Below, in pieces: positions 4,962 to 62,114 of a stretch of DNA of 64,000 nt. The notes below the pieces were generated by a model. It was given only the letters and a program-made list of their open reading frames with translations. It was not told where the DNA came from and made no database searches. A program made the translations under genes and the position numbers. Where the stretch lies: the IMG/VR virus record IMGVR_UViG_3300036832_000803, positions 5,727 to 69,726 of that record; one strand, written 5' to 3'. The DNA comes from a virus. Positions within the stretch are counted from its first letter, which is position 1. Every line of letters starts with the position of its first letter.

Positions 4962-6326
4962 ATGAAATACAATCAACCGTTCGATCAACCGTCGAATCCG
5001 AACGCGCCTTATATCGACGGCAATCCTGCCGCCGGCATCCAAGGCTCGATCGTGCCGGCAGCGGCGGTCGAATATCCGCAGCGCGAGATCGTGAACACGA
5101 TCCAGGCGGCTGGTCTGACCGGCACCAATGCCGATCTCAACCAGCTGCTCGAAGCGCTCAAGATCGTGGACGTGTTCAATCACTTTAAACTTGGCACGAA
5201 CAGCGGCAACGCCTCGCAATGGAGTTGCACGATCCCAACGCTGCCGATCATGCCGCCGCCGCGCGGCTGCACGATCTGGTTCGAACCGATGCTTGCCTCG
5301 GTCAATGGCGGCACCGTTTTTTCCGTCAACGGCAGCGCGTTCGCTCCGGTCAAGATGACCGACGGTTCGGACATCGCCATCGGCGACGTGGCCGGACCGG
5401 GTTGGTTGTTGTTGTTCTTCGACGGCACCAATTGGGTCATTCTCGCCGGCTCCACGCGCGTCCCCAGCAGCAGCACCGGCGGCGGCGGGACACCACCCCC
5501 CGGCGGCGGCACGATTCCCGCGCTGCAAAAAAATGCAGATTGGTACGTCAACGGCACGACCGGAGACGACACTTACGATGGCACTTCGGCCACCTTTATC
5601 AGTGCCAAAGTCGGGCCGTTCAAGACGCTCCAGCGCGCCGCGAACGAAGTCCCCAAGTACAACATGAACGGCTACAATCAAAACATCCACGTCGCCGACG
5701 GCAATTATGGACCCGTCATATTTGGCAGCCTGAACGGCGCCGGCGAGTGCTATGTGATCGGCAACGCCAACGCGCCGCAGAACTGCACGATCACGGGGAA
5801 TACGAGCGTGGTGCCATATTGCGCCATTGCCCAATACGCCGAAGGCAGCAGCTATGATTATACAGGCTTTCGGCTGTCGACACCTGCTTCCGGGGGCTAC
5901 GACGGCTTCGCAGGCAACGGCGGATATGCGACGCTGCACACCATGCGGTTCGGCCCTTGCGGCCGCTATCATATTTCCTGCAATCAAGACGGCGCTACCG
6001 TCGACCTCGAAACCGGTACGATCTTTATCGAGCCGGGTGCCAATGCCGTAGCGCATATATCCGCCGAGCAACTTGGCTTCGTCACGCACTCGCCGAATTT
6101 GCCGACGCTCAACATTCTTGGAACGGTGACATTCACCAACGGCTTCATCCAAGCAGATCATTTGGGCTACGCGCAGATGCAGTACACGAGCATCACCAAT
6201 CCACAATACGTCACCGGACCAAAGTTCGCAGTATGGATGAACGGCGTCGTCTCGTCCCTTCATGGCGTGAATTACTATCCGGGGAGCGCTGCCGGCACGC
6301 AAAACACCGGCGGCCAAGTCGATTGA
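4962..6326 (+). CDS. Tail fibre / tailspike protein
   Basis: N-terminal QREIVNTIQAAGL..NADLNQLLEAL anchor; WYVNGTTGDD..GPFKTLQRA motif that precedes beta-helix domains. Confidence 0.75.
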   Translation: MKYNQPFDQPSNPNAPYIDGNPAAGIQGSIVPAAAVEYPQREIVNTIQAAGLTGTNADLNQLLEALKIVDVFNHFKLGTNSGNASQWSCTIPTLPIMPPPRGCTIWFEPMLASVNGGTVFSVNGSAFAPVKMTDGSDIAIGDVAGPGWLLLFFDGTNWVILAGSTRVPSSSTGGGGTPPPGGGTIPALQKNADWYVNGTTGDDTYDGTSATFISAKVGPFKTLQRAANEVPKYNMNGYNQNIHVADGNYGPVIFGSLNGAGECYVIGNANAPQNCTITGNTSVVPYCAIAQYAEGSSYDYTGFRLSTPASGGYDGFAGNGGYATLHTMRFGPCGRYHISCNQDGATVDLETGTIFIEPGANAVAHISAEQLGFVTHSPNLPTLNILGTVTFTNGFIQADHLGYAQMQYTSITNPQYVTGPKFAVWMNGVVSSLHGVNYYPGSAAGTQNTGGQVD

Positions 6327-24611: not shown

Positions 24612-24694
24612 CGGCTCATCTCCTTTGTTTGTCCGCACGCAAAGGCCCTATGGCGTCATGCCGGTGCTTTTGGCGCGCGTTTGTCAAAAAAGAT

Positions 24695-24832
24695 GAGGAA
24701 AATCAAAGGGAAAGGGCGGACTCTGACTCCGTCAATCTAGGTTCGAATCCTAGTCCCCCAGCCAATTGATTTTCCTCGGTTTTCCCAAAATCTAAGCCAG
24801 AACAGGTAGGCCAGTTTACAGGGCAGTTTACC
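24695..24832. mobile_element. attP: core = 3' half of tRNA-Gln(CTG), 24716-24764
   Basis: GCGGA-CTCTGAC-TCCGT..CTAGG-TTCGAAT-CCTAG-TCCCCCA-GCCA with no 5' half; 12-bp inverted repeat GAGGAAAATCAA/TTGATTTTCCTC flanks it; CAGTTTAC direct repeats at about 24812-24831; integrase nearby. Confidence 0.85.
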
Positions 24833-24941: not shown

Positions 24942-25217
24942 CTATCGCCGCCGCGCCTCATGCGCGGCAACGGAGATGTGCCGCTGCTCGGTCGGCTCGT
25001 CGAAAACAAGCTTACACACTTGGAAGCGAACTCCCTCGATCTCGCCATTGGCCTCGTCGATCTGTCCATCAGCAAGGCGTTGGATTTTGGCCGCCGCCTC
25101 GTCCGCATCGCCCGCCACCACCGACACCGCGAACGTCGCCGTCACCAAGCCGGCATAGACCTTGCGCTCCGCCGGCGGCCGTGGCGGCACCACCGTCGGT
25201 TTCCAGCGCTTGCTCAT
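24942..25217 (-). CDS. Small hypothetical protein between integrase and attP
   Basis: ATGA overlap with integrase stop; GGGAGG SD. Confidence 0.5.
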   Translation of the reverse strand: MSKRWKPTVVPPRPPAERKVYAGLVTATFAVSVVAGDADEAAAKIQRLADGQIDEANGEIEGVRFQVCKLVFDEPTEQRHISVAAHEARRR

Positions 25218-26497
25218 TTCGCCCTCCCGAGATTCTGCGTCGCGAGCTTGGCGAGCCGCGCCTCGCGCTCGGCCCTCGCCCGCTGCCGCGGCGTCAACGG
25301 CCGCGCCCGCTTCGCCTTGCCCGGCTTGAGCCGCACCACATTGTTCGGAAGCACCGTCGGTACCTTGCGCGCTGCCGCTGCATTGAGCCGCCGAATGGTG
25401 TCCAGTTCGAGCTTCTCAATCGCACCGCGCACCATCTCGTCGTCGCGTTTGATGTAGTTGGCATCGAGAATCGAAGCGATCTCCTTGAGGCTGTGGCCGG
25501 TGATCATCGCAATGGTGCGATCCGGGTTGCCGGCGAGCGCCAGCCGCGTTGCCGCCGTTCCGCGCAGATCGTTGAAAGTCAGATTGTCCACATTGTCGCG
25601 CGGTTGCATCAGCCCCGCCTTGATGCTGTACGTGCGCCAAGACGAGCGCAAACCGTTGGGGCCGTCCCGTTTGCCGATCTTCCACGGCTGCCCGTGCTCA
25701 TTGAGCAGGATATGCGTGGCGTCGCTGTAGCGCTCTTTTTTGGCGTCGAGCAATGCCTTCAACGGGCCGCCTACCGGGATCGAGACGGGCACCGGATCGC
25801 GGCGCTTGCCGATGCTCTTGTGTTGCACGAGGTTGAGATGGCTGCCGTCGTAGGCCGCGAGCCTGACGCGCACCAAGTCGCCTTGCCGCTGGCCGGTCCA
25901 TAGCGCCAGGATCAGCGCCTCTTGCAGATGGGGCGGCGCCACGTCGAGGAAACATTTCTCGTCGTCGAGCGACCACACCTTGTCGCGCCGGTTGCCGCGA
26001 TAGCTCTTGTGGCGGCCATGGCAGGGATTGAAAATCAGATCGCCGTCGTCGACCTTGAGCGAGAGGATCGCCGACAATACCGAAAGCGTCATGTCGGCCT
26101 GCCGCGCGCCAATCTGGTCGACCAGTTTCGCATGCCAGCGCCGGATCACGCCGCGAACGACCGGCTCGCGGAAGAGCCGCACCGGCGCTTCGCCGAACTC
26201 CGCTTCGATGCGTGGCATCACCTTGATGTAATCATGCCGCGTGCGCTCGGCGTTGTCCTTGAACTCGCGACTGTCGCAATACTCGCGCATCCAGAGCAGG
26301 AAGCGGCCCGGCGGCAGCGTCTTGCGGTCCGTCACTTTCTGCCAGAACTCGGCGACGAAATCTGCCGTGCCGTGCGGTGCCAGAATGCGCGGCGCCCCCT
26401 TGCCGCGCCACGCAAAATAATAAATGGCCTCGCGGCCGCCGGCCAAAATCTTCGGGACGGCATGGAGCCCCTTCAACGGTTTGCATTTCTCGCACAT
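25214..26497 (-). CDS. int: Tyrosine recombinase / phage integrase
   Basis: TGQRQGD (R), FNDLRGT (H/N..R), ITGHS, DANY (Y); adjacent attP. Confidence 0.9.
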   Translation of the reverse strand: MCEKCKPLKGLHAVPKILAGGREAIYYFAWRGKGAPRILAPHGTADFVAEFWQKVTDRKTLPPGRFLLWMREYCDSREFKDNAERTRHDYIKVMPRIEAEFGEAPVRLFREPVVRGVIRRWHAKLVDQIGARQADMTLSVLSAILSLKVDDGDLIFNPCHGRHKSYRGNRRDKVWSLDDEKCFLDVAPPHLQEALILALWTGQRQGDLVRVRLAAYDGSHLNLVQHKSIGKRRDPVPVSIPVGGPLKALLDAKKERYSDATHILLNEHGQPWKIGKRDGPNGLRSSWRTYSIKAGLMQPRDNVDNLTFNDLRGTAATRLALAGNPDRTIAMITGHSLKEIASILDANYIKRDDEMVRGAIEKLELDTIRRLNAAAARKVPTVLPNNVVRLKPGKAKRARPLTPRQRARAEREARLAKLATQNLGRAK

Positions 26498-29851: not shown

Positions 29852-29859
29852 GCGCGTTG

Positions 29860-30235
29860 CCTTTCGAGATGGCGCAAAAAAATATGTGCGGACCAGCAGC
29901 CTTGAACGAGAAATGCCTGGAGAAGAGAAGCGCTCGCAGGCTGCCTTTCTGGGAGCGACCGATCTCCGCACTGACCGACCGAGAAGTCCCGCTTCCCTCC
30001 AACAAATGGCGCACGGTGCGCGAGACCCGTCCGTGCCCGGTTTATCTGACCACCCCGCGCTGCTAAGCCAACGGCATTGCAGTCCTTTCCGATGGCCCCG
30101 ACCTTCTCGGGTGCGTACTTTCCGGCTGCGCATATCCACGTCAGCGGAGCCGGGGTTTTCGGCGGTCGAACCTTGCTCAGTGGGGAGAGGTTCAACATGC
30201 CCTGTGCTGCGGTCGATGATCTCCTTTGTTTGTTT
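29860..30235 (-). ncRNA. Candidate structured ncRNA downstream of the tRNA-like gene
   Basis: No convincing ORF; several 7-8 bp complementary pairs (29979-86/30103-10, 29896-902/29938-44, 29886-92/29965-71). Confidence 0.35.
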
Positions 30236-30240
30236 GCTCG

Positions 30241-30346
30241 TGGCTCTCCCGCGAGGACTCGAACCTCGACCCTCGAAAGGACGGCGCCCTCTGGACCCCT
30301 ATGATGCCCGAAGGCTCCGCGCGTCTACCAATTCCGCCACGGGAGA
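30241..30346 (-). tRNA. Atypical 106-nt tRNA-like RNA with elongated anticodon arm
   Basis: 7-bp acceptor TCTCCCG/CGGGAGA + G + CCA; D arm GCGGAATTGGTAGACGC; T arm CGAGG-TTCGAGT-CCTCG; 13-nt variable arm; 38-nt anticodon arm. Confidence 0.8.
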
Positions 30347-30353
30347 AAACACG

Positions 30354-31562
30354 TCACACCAACTTGTTCTGTGCCGGCTTGAGCTTGGCGACGGCGCTGC
30401 GCACCCATTCCTGCACGGCGTCGAAATCTGGTTTGGTCACGCCGCAGGCATTGCGCATCGATCGCTGGGCGTCGGAGTTGAACCAAGCTTCGAGCGCATC
30501 GGCGCTCTTGGCGTCGTCAACGACTTTGCGCGCGAACCGCTTGTAAGACTCCGCATCCTTCGGCGGACCTTCGTCGCCGCCGCCCGGCGCGGGTGATCCC
30601 GGCTTCGCAGAGTCGGCGGCGTTTTCTGATCCGCCGGCCTCTGGCGTTCCCGGTTTTCCCGCGCCGGGTGGCTCCCCCCGAGTCGGTGGCTTCGGCAGCG
30701 ACTTGCCGCCGTTGCCTTCGGTCTCGTCGGTCAGTGACGGGTCGGCGCCGAAGTGATCGAAAGCGGCCGCAATGTTTGCTGGTCTTTGCGCGGTGACGGA
30801 TTCGGCGTCCTGACGCGCGCGCTGGAAATCGTACAACTCGTCGTCACGGTGCAGCACGCGATCCAGATCGGTCGACTTCGGCAGCACCTTCGAATGACGC
30901 CGCGCGACTGTTTTCTTGGCCATCTCGCCGTAGCTGGCCGGGTTCGACCAGGGGCCTTTCTTCGCGCGCGAGAACGCCTTGCGGATGTCCTCGATCTCAT
31001 CGATGTTCATGACATCGCGCGAGAGTCCGCCGTCCTTCAGCCGGCAAACGCTGTAAGCGTGCGTGATCTTGCGGTGGAGTCCGCCGCTCGGCGCCGGCTT
31101 GTGTTTGATGAACGGCTCATCGCCAAGCTCGTAAGCGAATTGATCGCCCTCATAGACAAGGCTCACGTCCCACGTATCAATCTCGCCCGAATTGCGGGCG
31201 ATCTTGCGCAGGCCGGCGATCATTGGCATCCACGTGGCCTTCGCTCCATCGGTGCGACGACGGCCGCCGTCTTCGTCATCCTCGCCGAATGGCACGATGG
31301 CGCCCTCGCGGCCGTCCGGCAGCAGCCCATCTTGCGCGGCCTTCATGCAGGCGTTGAAAAAGCTCTGCCGATCGCAGGCCAGGAGCTTCGGCGTGTTCTG
31401 CACCGCGGTCATCACGACGCGCATAAACCGCTCCACCGGGATGTGCGCCGGCAGCGCCATTTTGAATTGGGTCTCCATCTTCCCGAGATCGGCGCGGAAC
31501 TGTTGGATGATGGCGGGAAGCTTGGTCTCTTGGCCGGTGGTGACTTGGTTGGGCGTCGTCAT
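30354..31562 (-). CDS. recT: RecT-family ssDNA annealing protein
   Basis: ALPAHI..ERF.R, AAQDGLLPDGREGAIVPF, GPW....GEMAKKTVARR..K.LP.S. Confidence 0.9.
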   Translation of the reverse strand: MTTPNQVTTGQETKLPAIIQQFRADLGKMETQFKMALPAHIPVERFMRVVMTAVQNTPKLLACDRQSFFNACMKAAQDGLLPDGREGAIVPFGEDDEDGGRRRTDGAKATWMPMIAGLRKIARNSGEIDTWDVSLVYEGDQFAYELGDEPFIKHKPAPSGGLHRKITHAYSVCRLKDGGLSRDVMNIDEIEDIRKAFSRAKKGPWSNPASYGEMAKKTVARRHSKVLPKSTDLDRVLHRDDELYDFQRARQDAESVTAQRPANIAAAFDHFGADPSLTDETEGNGGKSLPKPPTRGEPPGAGKPGTPEAGGSENAADSAKPGSPAPGGGDEGPPKDAESYKRFARKVVDDAKSADALEAWFNSDAQRSMRNACGVTKPDFDAVQEWVRSAVAKLKPAQNKLV

Positions 31563-55280: not shown

Positions 55281-56087
55281 TCAATGGTGCTGCGGGACGC
55301 GCAGCGGGTTGGGATAGCCGGCGGGCAGGTAGGATTGCAGATCGCGCTTGATGTAGTGGCGCGCGTCGAGCCAATTGAGCACGGCGACCATGCGGTGCGT
55401 GTAGTCGCACCAATCGGTCGTCTTCGTCATTGGCAGATAGTTGACGCGGCCGACCTTGTAGAGATCGACGAATTCGTGCGTCGCCTTGACGATCGCAATC
55501 GACGCGTCAACGTCCAGCGTCGGTTCAAGCGAAACCCAAGTGAAGATGCCGCGATCGTGGAACGCCTTGATGGCCGCGATCCGATCGGCCGGGAGCGCGG
55601 CGTTGCGTTCCCATTTTTTCGAAAAGCGTTCGTCGAGCGACGTGAGCGTGGAAGCGAAGGCGTCGCGATCCGCGCGGAATAGATCGATGTCGCGGAGCGC
55701 GCGCGTGCCGCCCTTGGTGAGCGTGCAGATGCCGAGCCCGGCGCCGATCAGTGTTTCGAGCGTCGCCCGCGTCAGGCTGTTGTCGCCCGGATGGTACGGG
55801 TCGGTCGTGAACGAAAGCATGACCTGGGCGCGCACGCCCGCGGCCTTGTACTTGGCGGCGTCGGAGCGCAGTACGTCGAGATAGTCACGGCGCGGGACAG
55901 CGCCCGCGTCGAATTCCGCGCGGGGCTGATGCGTGACCAGCGGCACGTAGCAATAGGCGCAGCCGTGGCCGCAGCCGCGATAGGGATTGGTCGCGAGCGG
56001 CGAGTATTCGCCGGCCTGCCCTTTCGGGGCGTAGATGATGCGGCAACCCCGAACGGAGACGCCGTCGTCATTTAGTGTCGGTTTCAT
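55281..56087 (-). CDS. Radical SAM protein (spore photoproduct lyase-like clade)
   Basis: NPYRGCGHGCAYCY (CxxxCxxC), SFTTDPY, LTKG, WVSLEP. Confidence 0.85.
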   Translation of the reverse strand: MKPTLNDDGVSVRGCRIIYAPKGQAGEYSPLATNPYRGCGHGCAYCYVPLVTHQPRAEFDAGAVPRRDYLDVLRSDAAKYKAAGVRAQVMLSFTTDPYHPGDNSLTRATLETLIGAGLGICTLTKGGTRALRDIDLFRADRDAFASTLTSLDERFSKKWERNAALPADRIAAIKAFHDRGIFTWVSLEPTLDVDASIAIVKATHEFVDLYKVGRVNYLPMTKTTDWCDYTHRMVAVLNWLDARHYIKRDLQSYLPAGYPNPLRVPQHH

Positions 56088-58514: not shown

Positions 58515-60020
58515 TTAGTGGGCGCCAACGTCGATCCCAGGCGCTCCCCACGGCGCGGTCGCGATCAGCGAGCGCACCGCTTCGGGATAGCCGGTCACGG
58601 CGAACAGCACGGGGCAATGCGGCTCCGGGCCGGGGTCGCCGATGTAGAGATCGGTGAAGCACACGATCAGCGACGCGTCGTCGTGCTCTTCGGCAACGTA
58701 ACGGAAGAGCGGGCGAAGGTCGGTCCCGCCGCCGCCGCGCGGATCGAAGGTGATCTCGTCGCCGGTGCGGTACGTGTCGACCCGGGTGACCCGAGTGTCG
58801 CCGTAGACCGCAACGACTTCGTCGACCACGCCGTCATCGAGCGCGGCCTGGGCTTCGGTCGCGATCAGGCGCAGCGCGACCTCGTCCATCGAGCCGCTGG
58901 TGTCGATCAGGAACATCGCCTTGTTGACGCCGTCGCGTTGCGAGCCCGGGAGGATCAAGCCTTGCCCGATAAACCGACGATTGGGCCGGTTCCAAGTTTC
59001 GGTTCGCAGCGCGCCCTGGTCGAACCATGCCCGCAACACTTCGCGCCAGTCTTGCGTCGGATTGTTCGATCGCTCGATCTCGCGCGTAATGTGGCCGGGC
59101 AACTGTCCGACCGCCTTCGCGATCGAAGCCGCCTGACGCACGACCCGGTCCCACGTGCTATCGATGTCCGAAAGGTCGGCGGTGTCGTCGGCGGCGTCCA
59201 GCACTTCGCCGCAGCGGCCGGGGTCGTTGGATTGCTGCGGGCCGTTGCCTTCGCCGTCGGGTTCGCCATCGGCATCGGCGCCGCGACCGGGCTCGTCGCC
59301 GCCTTCGTCGCCGTCGCCAGCTTGGCCGCCGGGCTGGTCGCCGGCTTCGCCTTCGTCGCCGTCGTCAGCGTTCGAGCCTGACGTTTCGTCGCCGTCGTCG
59401 GCTTCGTCGCCTTCGCCGTCGCCAGGATTGCCCTGGTCGTCGGCGTCGTCGCCTTCGCCCTGGTCGCCTTTGCCTTCGGCGTCGTCGGCTTCGTCGCCCG
59501 CGTCCTGGTCGTCGGCGTCGTCGCCGTCCGAGCCCGACGATTGTTCGTCGTCTGACTCGTCGTCGCCCTCTTGCGGTTGCGGCGGTTGCGGCTGCGGCTG
59601 CTGGTCAAGCTCGCGGCTCCGGTAGATGTCTTCGGCGGACATCCCGCGGTATTTTTCGTCGAGTAAGACCCATGGCGGAAGATCGAAACCCTCGTCGCGA
59701 AGGTCGACGTTGATCGCGTAGTCGCAAGCCTCGTTCCACTTTTCAGGATCGCGGCCCCGCCGCCGCGTCGAGTGGTGCCGCGCGTCGTGCTCGCTTTCGT
59801 GGGCCTGCACCGCGAGCAGCTGCATCTGAGTCAGCGTCGCGATGAAGTCCGGATTGTAGAAGTGGCGCTTTGAGTCGGTCGCCATCGTCTGTACCTTGCG
59901 CGACGGCACGGGCTCGACGTTCGAAACCAGCACGCCATAAAAGCGGCGCGCCATGATCAACTCGGCGCGCGCCTTCAGCACGCGCTCGGTCGCGGTGCGG
60001 GTGACTTGGTCGGTTTCCAT
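58515..60020 (-). CDS. DUF2201-type metallopeptidase + VWA protein
   Basis: TMATD, HESEH (HExxH), WN.ACDYAIN, acidic linker, IDTSGSM MIDAS, GGGGTD, FTD. Confidence 0.9.
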   Translation of the reverse strand: METDQVTRTATERVLKARAELIMARRFYGVLVSNVEPVPSRKVQTMATDSKRHFYNPDFIATLTQMQLLAVQAHESEHDARHHSTRRRGRDPEKWNEACDYAINVDLRDEGFDLPPWVLLDEKYRGMSAEDIYRSRELDQQPQPQPPQPQEGDDESDDEQSSGSDGDDADDQDAGDEADDAEGKGDQGEGDDADDQGNPGDGEGDEADDGDETSGSNADDGDEGEAGDQPGGQAGDGDEGGDEPGRGADADGEPDGEGNGPQQSNDPGRCGEVLDAADDTADLSDIDSTWDRVVRQAASIAKAVGQLPGHITREIERSNNPTQDWREVLRAWFDQGALRTETWNRPNRRFIGQGLILPGSQRDGVNKAMFLIDTSGSMDEVALRLIATEAQAALDDGVVDEVVAVYGDTRVTRVDTYRTGDEITFDPRGGGGTDLRPLFRYVAEEHDDASLIVCFTDLYIGDPGPEPHCPVLFAVTGYPEAVRSLIATAPWGAPGIDVGAH

Positions 60021-60076
60021 TGTGGTGACTCCGTTTGTTTGAAGGGAAGCCCCGGCGTTTGCAGCGCCGGGTTAGG

Positions 60077-60979
60077 TCAGGCCAGAAATTTCGAAACCGT
60101 GGCCACGATCTCGTCGGCGCTTTTCTGCACCGACTCGCGCGCGGCATCGTTCTTACGAAGATCGGCCGCGTCTTCGGCGCACAACTCTTTCTGAATGCGC
60201 TTGATGACCGCAGCGAGTTTCGGGTCTTCGGTCAGGTTGAAGGCCGGTAACAGGCCCACGAGATCGCGGACGTTGTCGATCAGCGAGTCGAGGAAGAAAC
60301 TGCGCTTGCCCTTGCCCTTGGCGCCCGCGTTGTATTCCTTCAGCTTCGTGCCGACGTGTCCCACGACTTCGATGATCTGCTCGGCGGTGTGGCGCATGGC
60401 GTCGTCGACCACGCGAGACGACGTTTCCGCGATCTCGCGCCGGATGTCGTCGACCGTGTCGTCGTCAAGATCGGAGCGAAAGTCGGCCGCGTCAGGAAAC
60501 GGCATGATGCTCATTTCGAGCTTGAATTTCGCGCGGATTTCCGAAACGTCCGGATAGTCGGACGAGTCGAACATTCCGTTGAGCGCGCGCTTGCGCTCTT
60601 CGACGAAGCGCGGATAGCCGGCCGCGAATTCGTTTGCGGCCTGCTCAAACTCGCGCTTGAGCTTGCGGAACTCGTCGGAGAATTTGACGAACAACGCGTT
60701 GGGCAGGATGCGCGGGCCTTCGTCGGCCCACGGGCGCGTCATGCTGTAGTGCAGCGTCCGCGCGGTGGAAACGAGCGTGTTGATCTTGGCCAGTCGCTCG
60801 GCTTCGATCAGGAGCTTGTTGTAGCGGCCGGCGTTGTCGGCGGCGCCGTGCTTGCGGTTGACTTCGTCGGTCACACGCTTGTCGAGCTTGCGCGCGGTCC
60901 ACTGCGAGATGTTGACCGAGACCAGCACGGCCTTGCGGGCGAGCGGCGTGGCGATGTTCTTCGTTTTCGTCTTTGTCAT
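60077..60979 (-). CDS. DUF3150-like protein
   Basis: LVSVNISQW.ARKLD, K.LI, PW...G.RILP, DYP...IR.KF, FNLT.DP.L; between the AAA and VWA genes. Confidence 0.65.
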   Translation of the reverse strand: MTKTKTKNIATPLARKAVLVSVNISQWTARKLDKRVTDEVNRKHGAADNAGRYNKLLIEAERLAKINTLVSTARTLHYSMTRPWADEGPRILPNALFVKFSDEFRKLKREFEQAANEFAAGYPRFVEERKRALNGMFDSSDYPDVSEIRAKFKLEMSIMPFPDAADFRSDLDDDTVDDIRREIAETSSRVVDDAMRHTAEQIIEVVGHVGTKLKEYNAGAKGKGKRSFFLDSLIDNVRDLVGLLPAFNLTEDPKLAAVIKRIQKELCAEDAADLRKNDAARESVQKSADEIVATVSKFLA

Positions 60980-61091
60980 GGGTGACTCCGTTTGGTTTGA
61001 TTGGAGGGGGCGGCGCCGATTTGCAGGCGGCGGCCTTGTGTTCGACCATGAACACTATCGGACGGCGCGAACCGCGCGCCGCCCTGAGTGC

Positions 61092-62114
61092 TCACGACAT
61101 CTGCAAGATGATGTCCTGATTTTCGACCGCCCATGCGCCATAGGCCGTCGTCTCTTTCAGCTTCTCGTCGCGCGTGGTGGCATCGTGAACCACCAGCACT
61201 TCGCTTTCACGCGGCAGGCGCTTTGCATACTTGATGATGTTCGGAAGTGTCTTGCGGGTCGCCATCCGTCCGAGCCCGGTGCAAACCGCGTACCGGGAAG
61301 ATGCATCGGTCGGCAACGGCGCGGTCGCAGGGCTCGCGATGATGTCGTCGAGCGATCCCAGGTTCCGGTAAAGCTCGATGAAGCCATCAAGCTCCGCGGC
61401 CGGCGCGTCGCCGATATGCGATGCGAACAGCCGCAGGCGTTGCGTCTTCGGCGCGTTGACGTACTTGGCGGCCTTGGTGAGCGACCGCGGCGTCGGAAAG
61501 GCGTTCTCGTCGCCCTTCGGCATGACGTGAATTAGCTCACGTCGAAGCCGCACGAAGGCGACAACCTCGGGCGCGACATTGCTGCGGTTCGCCCAGGCAC
61601 ACCACGCGTTGACATCGGGCGTGATGAAGAGATGGGCGAACCGATTGCGCAACGCGGTCGGCATGCGTTGCGCCGCGGCTCGATCGGAAACGCGATTGCC
61701 GGCGGCGACGATGACCCAGCCGTCGGGCAACGTGTACTCGCCCACGCGCCGATCGAGCACAAGGCCGAACAGCACCGCCATCATTTGCGGGCTCGCCGTG
61801 TTGATCTCGTCGAGGAAGAGAATGCCGCGCTCGCCGTCGCGTTCAGCGTTCGGCAATTCGTCGGGGATAAGCCATCGCGTCGTGCCCTTGGCGAGATCGG
61901 GCACCGGGATGCCGCGAACGTCGACGGGCTCGCGAATGTTGGCGCGATACTCGATGACCTTCCAGCCGCGGCCGGCGCCGACTTGCCATGTGGCTTCCGA
62001 TTTGCCGATGCCGGGCGGACCCCAAAGCATGACGGGGTCGCGCCCGTCGATAAGGATATTGAGAAGGCTGACCGCTTCGGCGATCGTGACGCATTGCTCA
62101 AGAATGGCAGACAT
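61092..62114 (-). CDS. MoxR-like AAA+ ATPase
   Basis: GPPGIGKS, LFLDEIN, AAGNR..D, ALRNRF, TPRS. Confidence 0.9.
   Translation of the reverse strand: MSAILEQCVTIAEAVSLLNILIDGRDPVMLWGPPGIGKSEATWQVGAGRGWKVIEYRANIREPVDVRGIPVPDLAKGTTRWLIPDELPNAERDGERGILFLDEINTASPQMMAVLFGLVLDRRVGEYTLPDGWVIVAAGNRVSDRAAAQRMPTALRNRFAHLFITPDVNAWCAWANRSNVAPEVVAFVRLRRELIHVMPKGDENAFPTPRSLTKAAKYVNAPKTQRLRLFASHIGDAPAAELDGFIELYRNLGSLDDIIASPATAPLPTDASSRYAVCTGLGRMATRKTLPNIIKYAKRLPRESEVLVVHDATTRDEKLKETTAYGAWAVENQDIILQMS

Follow-up and report, generated by a model that had tools for sequence, protein, structure and literature searches.

Within 64,000 nt of viral DNA (IMG/VR record IMGVR_UViG_3300036832_000803, positions 5,727 to 69,726; hereafter the window), a tRNA-shaped RNA gene of 106 nt was analyzed that occupies window positions 30241-30346 on the minus strand. 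It is designated W, and positions such as 27-66 refer to the numbering within the 106-nt RNA. Judged by sequence comparison, W is read here, with a probability of roughly 0.55, as a real and selected tRNA-shaped RNA that does not decode, belongs to an orphan soil branch of a phage tRNA(GUU) family and would serve as a mimic, decoy or ligand by way of its acceptor/elbow half. Reading of codons by W is almost certainly ruled out by the predicted fold. The acceptor end, leucine-type D arm, T arm and elbow of the family are kept in W; the 17-nt anticodon arm, the GUU loop and the partner enzyme are lost.

All parts of the tRNA frame that the original prediction, made without database searches, had described on the minus strand were recovered, i.e., a perfect 7-bp acceptor stem, a G discriminator, an encoded CCA, a Leu-type D arm, a T arm and a CCU-UUCG-AGG hairpin. 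In the acceptor stem (UCUCCCG/CGGGAGA) 7/7 positions are paired, and pairs 1-3 are U1-A72, C2-G71 and U3-A70. The D arm, GCGGAAUUGGUAGACGC, is identical to that of ordinary tRNA-Leu genes retrieved in the scans. Acceptor, D and T arms and the T-loop and D-loop consensus are those of a canonical tRNA, whereas the canonical anticodon arm of 17 nt (5-bp stem, 7-nt loop) is replaced by one of 38 nt (38-40 nt). Folding of positions 27-66 alone resulted in 14 pairs, interrupted by a single A.G mismatch and a single bulged A, in agreement with the interrupted helix of 38 instead of 17 nt that had been postulated. The energy of this arm was -21.1 kcal/mol (z = -3.4; 1 of 200 shuffles as stable), and the whole 106-mer reached z = -1.7 (11/200 shuffles). 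RNAfold favoured a loop of 9 nt or 4 nt in this arm, not one of 7 nt. With about 14 pairs and no 7-nt loop, the arm is too long for normal decoding, as had been foreseen. No second copy or complement of the arm tip was found within the window when up to 3 mismatches were allowed.

Relatives of W were collected by pattern scans of IMG/VR, the most specific of which returned exactly four elements (L113, L134, L069 and L192). These lie on viral contigs of about 62% GC and are referred to, together with W, as the soil group. The first 29 nt and the last 28 nt are the same in W, L113 and L069. L134 deviates from this scaffold by a compensatory change of C6-G67 to U6-A67 and by two T-loop changes, and L192 by one base each in the D loop and the T loop. 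Acceptor, D and T stems are perfectly paired in 5/5 elements. Because the scaffold is nearly identical in the five elements while the middle differs, these arms of W appear to be selected and not decaying, which upholds the earlier view. A pattern scan for GGTAGACGCGCGGAGCC yielded three loci, L113 being the sole relative among them. A blastn search of the W region against 50,697 phage records gave no match, and exact-string scans of genome contigs with the 5' half and the 3' half of W gave 0 matches each, so that neither a prophage copy nor a host was obtained. Outside the soil group, the only exact 24-nt match to the 3' half of W was an ordinary tRNA-Gln(CUG), located in a phage tRNA cluster (Met, Asn, Gln, Lys, Trp; L112:468-1755, minus strand) and sharing acceptor stem and T arm with W. 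The acceptor/T half of W may, to judge from this match, have been exchanged with a tRNA-Gln gene of the L112 type.

The arms that replace the anticodon arm vary within the soil group. The 14 pairs of the 38-nt arm of W are matched by about 13 pairs in the 40-nt arm of L113 (z = -0.5), in which the variable hairpin is absent. The arm of L134 comprises 24 nt with 11 pairs, including four G.U, and a UCCA loop (z = -2.8), and that of L069 and L192 comprises 20 nt with 8 pairs and a 6-nt loop (z = -2.1). Hence, 3 of the 4 distinct arms fold better than shuffled sequences, and in none of the five elements does the most stable fold contain a 7-nt anticodon loop. L113 is an independent assembly that shares the long arm of W; therefore the extension is not a private accident or assembly slip. 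The first 10 nt and the A.G mismatch are common to both arms. The bulged A of W is paired in L113 through an inserted U. Two of the pairs are disrupted in L113, whose tip reads GUUCGAGG instead of the AUCAUAGGG of W. The CAU anticodon-like loop once assumed for W was abandoned in view of this difference and of the loops favoured by RNAfold. The two long arms clearly derive from one ancestral extension. The 3' strand of the W arm, GGUCCAGAGGGCGCCG, was aligned by eye with the loop plus 3' strand of L134, GCUCCAGCGGGGGCCG. Taken together, the sequences lend modest comparative support to the long helix.

A wider phage family was found with two further scans. In the first, only UCU at positions 1-3 and the D arm were fixed and the 3' end was left free; 20 loci were obtained, 16 of which end with AGA-G-CCA. 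In the second, only the T loop and the AGAGCCA end were fixed, which returned ordinary phage tRNA-Asn(GUU) genes of 75-78 nt and many genes of 85-113 nt in which a GUU loop is combined with a long variable arm and a D arm of the Leu type. A pooled set of 150 unique elements with Leu-type D arms was compiled, for which perfect acceptor and T stems were required. Among the elements starting with UCU (n=55), 53 had G73 plus CCA and 2 another 3' end; among those with other first bases (n=95), none had G73 plus CCA and all 95 had another 3' end. These counts are biased by the search patterns, and the same link is given by the first scan with its free 3' end. Alignment of 20 members showed 100% pairing throughout the acceptor, D and T helices. 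Pairs 1-3 were invariant (20/20), while pairs 4-7 and the T stem covaried (score 0.538 versus 0.160 in shuffled alignments; 0/500 shuffles reached it). U1-A72, C2-G71, U3-A70 and G73 were invariant in 53/53 family members, and these four features are found in W together with the encoded CCA and the leucine-type D arm. A 5-bp stem with an NNGUUNN loop was present in 48/53, the only exceptions being W, L113, L134, L069 and L192. The original prediction had been set against the case that homologues are ordinary tRNAs and the extension is a private unpaired insertion; the distant homologues do have ordinary arms, whereas the extension is paired and shared.

Directly upstream of the tRNA in 47 of the 48 GUU members, a gene for a class IIb synthetase consisting of the catalytic core only was located; the 48th has 5 nt of upstream DNA. 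The gene comprises about 275 codons, and its product matched PF00152 (E = 6e-15) and, weakly, NCBIfam models for AspRS, AsnRS, LysRS and AsnA. None of the soil elements (0/5) has such a gene nearby. A search for PF00152 in four soil records (G000-G003) revealed nothing, and tblastn with five of these enzymes against G000, G001 and G004, two of which are at least 96% complete, gave a best E-value of 0.089. The synthetase-tRNA(GUU) pair was observed in marine-type phages (L140-L142, L146, L148-L154, L158 and L159) and at about 35 further loci (L162-L268). In these, the synthetase gene ends 4-9 nt before a tRNA(GUU) of 85-113 nt with Leu-type D arm, U1-A72, G73, CCA and often U37. Descent of the soil group from the marine tRNA(GUU) family is considered probable on these shared characters, not proven.

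The scans also retrieved more than 100 viral (L002-L111) and metagenomic (L118-L126) loci with tRNA-Leu-like acceptor, D and T arms, mostly with A73 and no CCA. Their middles of 46-124 nt contain no normal anticodon arm, and some of these loci, such as L074, hold two or three different elements of this kind. Certain middles recur as families, e.g., UAAGCGUAGUAAG...ACGACG in L011, L030, L037 and L073. A GAUAG-like motif in these odd Leu-type elements was dropped since it is not universal and the genomes are AT-rich. Seventeen metagenome loci with this 5' half comprised 7 with long odd middles and 10 ordinary-length tRNA-Leu genes.

Possible charging of W was evaluated with the identity rules given in the available part of PMC9976931. 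There, bacterial asparagine identity rests on the anticodon plus G73, U1-A72 directs the amidotransferase, and in E. coli G73 is an antideterminant for LeuRS and C2-G71 for SerRS. W has G73, U1-A72 and C2-G71 and no anticodon. By these rules, AsnRS, non-discriminating AspRS, LeuRS and SerRS should not charge W. Its acceptor end is of the Asn/Gln type, which is also that of tRNA-Gln, and matches the phage tRNA(GUU) family; the Leu/Ser identity assigned originally was thus given up. Assignment to tRNA-Leu was rejected in spite of the identical D arm, as position 73 is G and not A. G73 and the variable hairpin superficially resemble serine tRNAs, and the encoded CCA with intact acceptor and T arms would suit charging by an anticodon-blind enzyme (SerRS, LeuRS or another) and service as an aminoacyl donor outside the ribosome. 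This possibility is regarded as very improbable. C2-G71 and G73 counteract the two enzymes, the variable stem has only 3 pairs in W and is missing in L113, and the PF00152 and tblastn searches and the scan of window ORFs (open reading frames) revealed no gene of the phage that resembles a synthetase or a transferase. Assignment to tRNA-Ser was rejected on the variable stem and on C2-G71.

Standard tools classified W inconsistently. A local Rfam scan of 801 nt detected it as tRNA (RF00005) with 38.8 bits (E = 1.5e-6; threshold 29) and a 38-nt insertion, whereas it was absent from the matches of RF00005 gathering scans of the whole window and of its own genome. ARAGORN with default settings found no tRNA in the window. 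With introns allowed, ARAGORN reported Arg(UCG) for W and L134 (introns of 9 and 7 nt), Arg(UCU) for L113 (11 nt) and Ser(GCU) with two stem mismatches for L069 and L192. The Arg calls speak for a pre-tRNA with a removable insert of 9-21 nt, or for an unusual decoder, e.g., an Arg(UCG) tRNA; 'enigmatic' introns in Lak phage tRNAs are mentioned in the available part of PMC6784885. Such an origin is highly doubtful. The proposed introns of W, L113 and L134 lie at non-canonical positions and leave mismatched stems, the calls are inconsistent among relatives, which regain no common anticodon, and no GUU is left that could restore the family anticodon. Neither a bulge-helix-bulge motif nor a group I intron is compatible with the absence of 3-nt bulges and with only about 21 nt of extra sequence, which leave no room for a ribozyme. 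Furthermore, the local Rfam scan of W revealed no intron family. Among 48 window ORFs compared with Pfam and/or NCBIfam, a set that left out ORFs of less than 90 aa and many mid-sized ones, no tRNA enzyme, RNA ligase or splicing endonuclease was detected. The intron-containing pre-tRNA contemplated at the outset was consequently rejected. A tmRNA, characterized by a tag reading frame and a tRNA-like part that lacks a D stem, and a Y RNA-like (YrlA) mimic, in which the tRNA-like part is permuted and borne by a Ro-binding stem, were also rejected, as ARAGORN -m gave no result and Rfam no match to either at E-values up to 10. The ends of the W RNA sit at the acceptor stem.

For the preferred reading, a non-decoding RNA of the tRNA(GUU) family, the following course is proposed. 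W would be co-transcribed with the recombinase gene recT in an early operon, and RNase P and 3' trimming would release a stable RNA of about 106 nt ending with CCA. The arm, about 9 pairs (approximately 25 Å) too long and devoid of an anticodon loop, would prevent an anticodon from reaching the decoding centre, and W would also lack the anticodon needed by AsnRS or a non-discriminating AspRS. The acceptor/elbow half would then be the active part, and a protein that reads an Asn/Gln-type acceptor end would meet W as a mimic, decoy or ligand.

Both the tRNA mimic and the RNase P signal suggested originally are still live. As a mere processing signal, the tRNA fold of W would recruit RNase P, which would cut the early transcript behind recT and set mRNA ends and half-lives, and the released RNA would have no task of its own, in the manner of mitochondrial tRNA punctuation or of mascRNA behind MALAT1. 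W has the structural features expected of a substrate of RNase P and CCA-end enzymes. It starts 7 nt after the stop codon of recT on the same strand, and its relatives also follow upstream ORFs at a distance of a few nt (15 nt after the capsid gene for L113, 5 nt for L069). Conservation is confined to the parts that RNase P reads (acceptor, T arm, elbow and CCA), the arm varies freely, and a long, structured, ORF-poor trailer follows the element in G000, G001 and G004. On the other side, RNase P is indifferent to the bases at pairs 1-3 and at position 73, and yet U-A, C-G, U-A and G73 are invariant in 53/53 members while pairs 4-7 covary freely. The match of W to the punctuation RNA mascRNA (RF01684) was rejected as noise (18 bits versus a threshold of 42.5). 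Because the invariance of pairs 1-3 and G73 in marine and soil elements argues for a protein that reads the acceptor, the mimic or ligand was ranked above mere punctuation, which is considered unlikely.

The carriers of the elements were compared with respect to placement and mobility. The window phage (G000) is a 69.7-kb IMG/VR record rated 96% complete, G001 carries L069, and G004, which has terminal repeats and is rated 100% complete, carries L192. These three phages have many genes in common in the same order and are thus related; stop-to-stop frames including many shadow frames were used for this gene-cluster comparison, which served only for phage relatedness. In G000 the element directly follows recT, whereas in G001 and G004 it precedes the primase gene by about 155 nt; at L134 it lies before an ORF similar to the terminase small subunit (terS), and at L113 after a capsid-like ORF. 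Between G001 and G004, element plus trailer are 92% identical over 287 nt, as compared with 76% in the adjacent primase gene. The trailers of these two phages (G001:13600-13800 and G004:25790-25990, minus strand) comprise about 230 ORF-free nt and are conserved with the element. They contain several strong hairpins, and a repeated word, GAGGGCCGGUGC, underlies two of these.

The W stretch was found, whole or in part, in two soil DNA sequencing runs, with no RNA run among the matches; the listed pieces leave positions 30269-30319 unbridged, from which nothing was drawn. In soil DNA run X2, one contig, whose recT has diverged to about 87% identity, connects position 30354 with 30040 and thereby skips 313 nt including the element, and a second contig joins 30240 to 30100. 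Both junctions are hints only, as they occur in single contigs with 30-31 letters on the short side at 80% likeness. Element and trailer may be described, from these comparisons, as a small cassette, mobile or lost, that is conserved where present. Direct repeats flanking the cassette were not found.

These data also bear on the view that W is a relic or a hitch-hiking cassette, i.e., a former tRNA(GUU) that lost enzyme and anticodon and whose persistence or spread is of no benefit to the phage. GUU loop and enzyme are both absent in 5/5 soil elements and both present in 47/48 others, the element occupies four different sites in related phages, one contig of a diverged relative appears to be free of it (a weak hint), and L113 combines a lost variable hairpin with an arm no better than shuffles. 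Decay, however, should affect all arms and would not spare three of them, and the stems of acceptor, D and T arms are perfect in all five elements, with one compensatory double change. The element is also better conserved than the primase gene beside it, and neither a transposase nor a homing endonuclease was found next to W among the window ORFs scanned. For the sparing of the three arms in particular, a relic is held to be improbable.

Several points weigh against the preferred reading, in which W is a functional acceptor-end mimic. Expression, processing and charging are all inferred. The soil group has only five members with close sample numbers, so that the identity of the scaffold could partly reflect recent spread. 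The long helix is common to W and L113 mostly by identity, which is thin comparative support; the differences consist of a single compatible change on one side of a pair, a single indel by which a bulge becomes paired, and the two pairs broken in L113, whose arm does not exceed shuffles (z = -0.5). The soil group is tied to the marine family by shared characters that the search patterns in part imposed, and the exact 24-nt match to the tRNA-Gln(CUG) of L112 would permit recombination or convergence. The loss of the anticodon coincides perfectly with the loss of the enzyme and would also fit early decay. Finally, the identity rules applied are those of E. coli and not those of the host of W.

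A more far-reaching proposal is advanced tentatively: the acceptor end, and not decoding, may be the purpose of the whole phage tRNA(GUU) family, with W as a dedicated ligand, cofactor or decoy. The enzyme addressed would be one that reads U1-A72/G73, such as an amidotransferase, a relative of the marine mini-synthetase in the host, or a toxin of a defence system that attacks the acceptor ends of tRNAs; the hairpin of W would be only a structural handle.

The features of the region are compiled in Table 1. The window phage encodes, in addition to the integrase listed there, GcrA, a YqaJ-type exonuclease, a CI-like repressor, a GapR-like protein, an MT-A70 methylase, a primase-helicase and a Mu-type baseplate, and is temperate. 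GcrA, GapR and CcrM-type methylases presumably point to an alphaproteobacterial host. No ordinary tRNA gene was detected in the phage record with ARAGORN and RF00005. The only Rfam tRNA match at gathering score in the window is a partial tRNA-Gln(CUG) beside the integrase gene, in which anticodon arm, T arm, 3' acceptor strand and CCA are present and the 5' half is unpaired; this remnant is probably the phage attachment site. ORFs within the trailer behind W matched neither Pfam nor NCBIfam. A scan for sigma-70 promoters gave 0 sites and was not used as evidence, since the consensus may not fit the host. Genes for a radical-SAM protein and for a MoxR-type AAA protein were observed elsewhere in the window.

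Table 1. Location of W, its parts and other features in the window
Feature	Position	Strand	Basis or remarks
Whole tRNA-shaped RNA gene (W), 106 nt	30241..30346	minus	5' end at 30346, CCA at 30243-30241; sequence, Rfam tRNA 38.8 bits, family alignment
Acceptor stem, 5' strand UCUCCCG	30340..30346	minus	Pairs with 30245-30251 (CGGGAGA)
D arm GCGGAAUUGGUAGACGC	30321..30337	minus	3-bp stem (3/3 paired), leucine-type loop with G18 G19
Remodelled anticodon arm, positions 27-66	30281..30320	minus	Hairpin of 14 pairs; no GUU, no 7-nt loop
Short variable arm CCU-UUCG-AGG plus GU	30269..30280	minus	Sequence and fold; stem of 3 pairs
T arm CGAGG-UUCGAGU-CCUCG	30252..30268	minus	Stem 5/5 paired, canonical T loop UUCGAGU
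Acceptor 3' strand CGGGAGA, discriminator G (30244), encoded CCA (30243-30241)	30241..30251	minus	Sequence
RecT-family recombinase gene	30354..31562	minus	PF03837, E = 1e-38
Stretch of about 390 nt behind W, no convincing ORF	29852..30240	minus	Terminator-like hairpin 30010-30022; long hairpin, then U tract near 29875-29971
313-nt stretch (W plus 200 nt behind it)	30041..30353	minus	Skipped by one contig of a diverged relative
Integrase gene	25214..26497	minus	
3' part of tRNA-Gln(CUG)	24694..24761	plus	Rfam tRNA, 29.1 bits
Radical-SAM protein, PA0069/Rv2578c type	55281..56087	minus	
MoxR-type AAA protein with DUF2201 metallopeptidase/VWA protein	58515..62114	minus	

Among known systems, the marine phage tRNA(GUU) behind a class IIb mini-synthetase is similar to W in U1-A72, C2-G71, U3-A70, G73, CCA, the leucine-type D arm (identical 17 nt in many members), the T arm, the extra variable arm and the spacing of a few nt behind an ORF. 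It differs in the GUU loop and the arm of 17 instead of 38 nt; furthermore, the phage of W has no synthetase-like gene, and its hosts are high-GC bacteria of soil and not of the sea. Ordinary tRNA-Asn and tRNA-Gln share U1-A72 and G73 with W, the tRNA-Gln of L112 even 24 nt exactly. They belong to class I, measure 73-76 nt and have a D stem of 4 bp, an anticodon loop of 7 nt and a short variable loop, in contrast to the Leu-type D arm, the variable hairpin and the missing anticodon loop of W. With mascRNA behind MALAT1 and with mitochondrial tRNA punctuation, RNase P cleaves at a tRNA fold directly behind a gene, and the upstream RNA ends there. Decoding by the anticodon arm plays no part in these cases either. 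They are eukaryotic; a full D arm and specific bases in the acceptor are retained in W. In engineered 'tRNA scaffold' RNAs, as described by Ponchon and Dardel in the available part of PMC3753655, an intact acceptor/D/T frame bears a foreign hairpin instead of the anticodon arm, as in W, and the product is expected to be processed and stable like a tRNA. Those scaffolds are man-made, whereas W is natural and its hairpin has no recognised cargo. The tRNAs of Lak megaphages (Devoto 2019; available part of PMC6784885) are likewise too long for bacterial tRNA finders and have extra sequence in the anticodon region. There, removal of the insert yields a recognisable tRNA type, whereas W and its relatives regain no common anticodon. 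Searches of the open-access literature gave no paper on a phage tRNA of this kind, be it without an anticodon or with a long arm, and none on a mini-synthetase/tRNA(GUU) pair; supplements (e.g., of PMC6784885 and PMC10690425) may list similar RNAs.

In the soil elements, a phage lineage has kept every part of a tRNA save the one that reads codons. The usual explanations of phage tRNA genes are codon supply and escape from anticodon nucleases. The soil elements carry the acceptor signature of a widespread marine synthetase-tRNA pair, so that in them the family has been dissected by nature. Provided that these elements have a function, their conserved acceptor end would have a role that is independent of both the anticodon and the phage enzyme, and if the acceptor end is indeed what the family serves, W would be a natural minimal tRNA cofactor or decoy. 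The element thus offers a concrete handle on the role of non-decoding tRNA look-alikes in phages.

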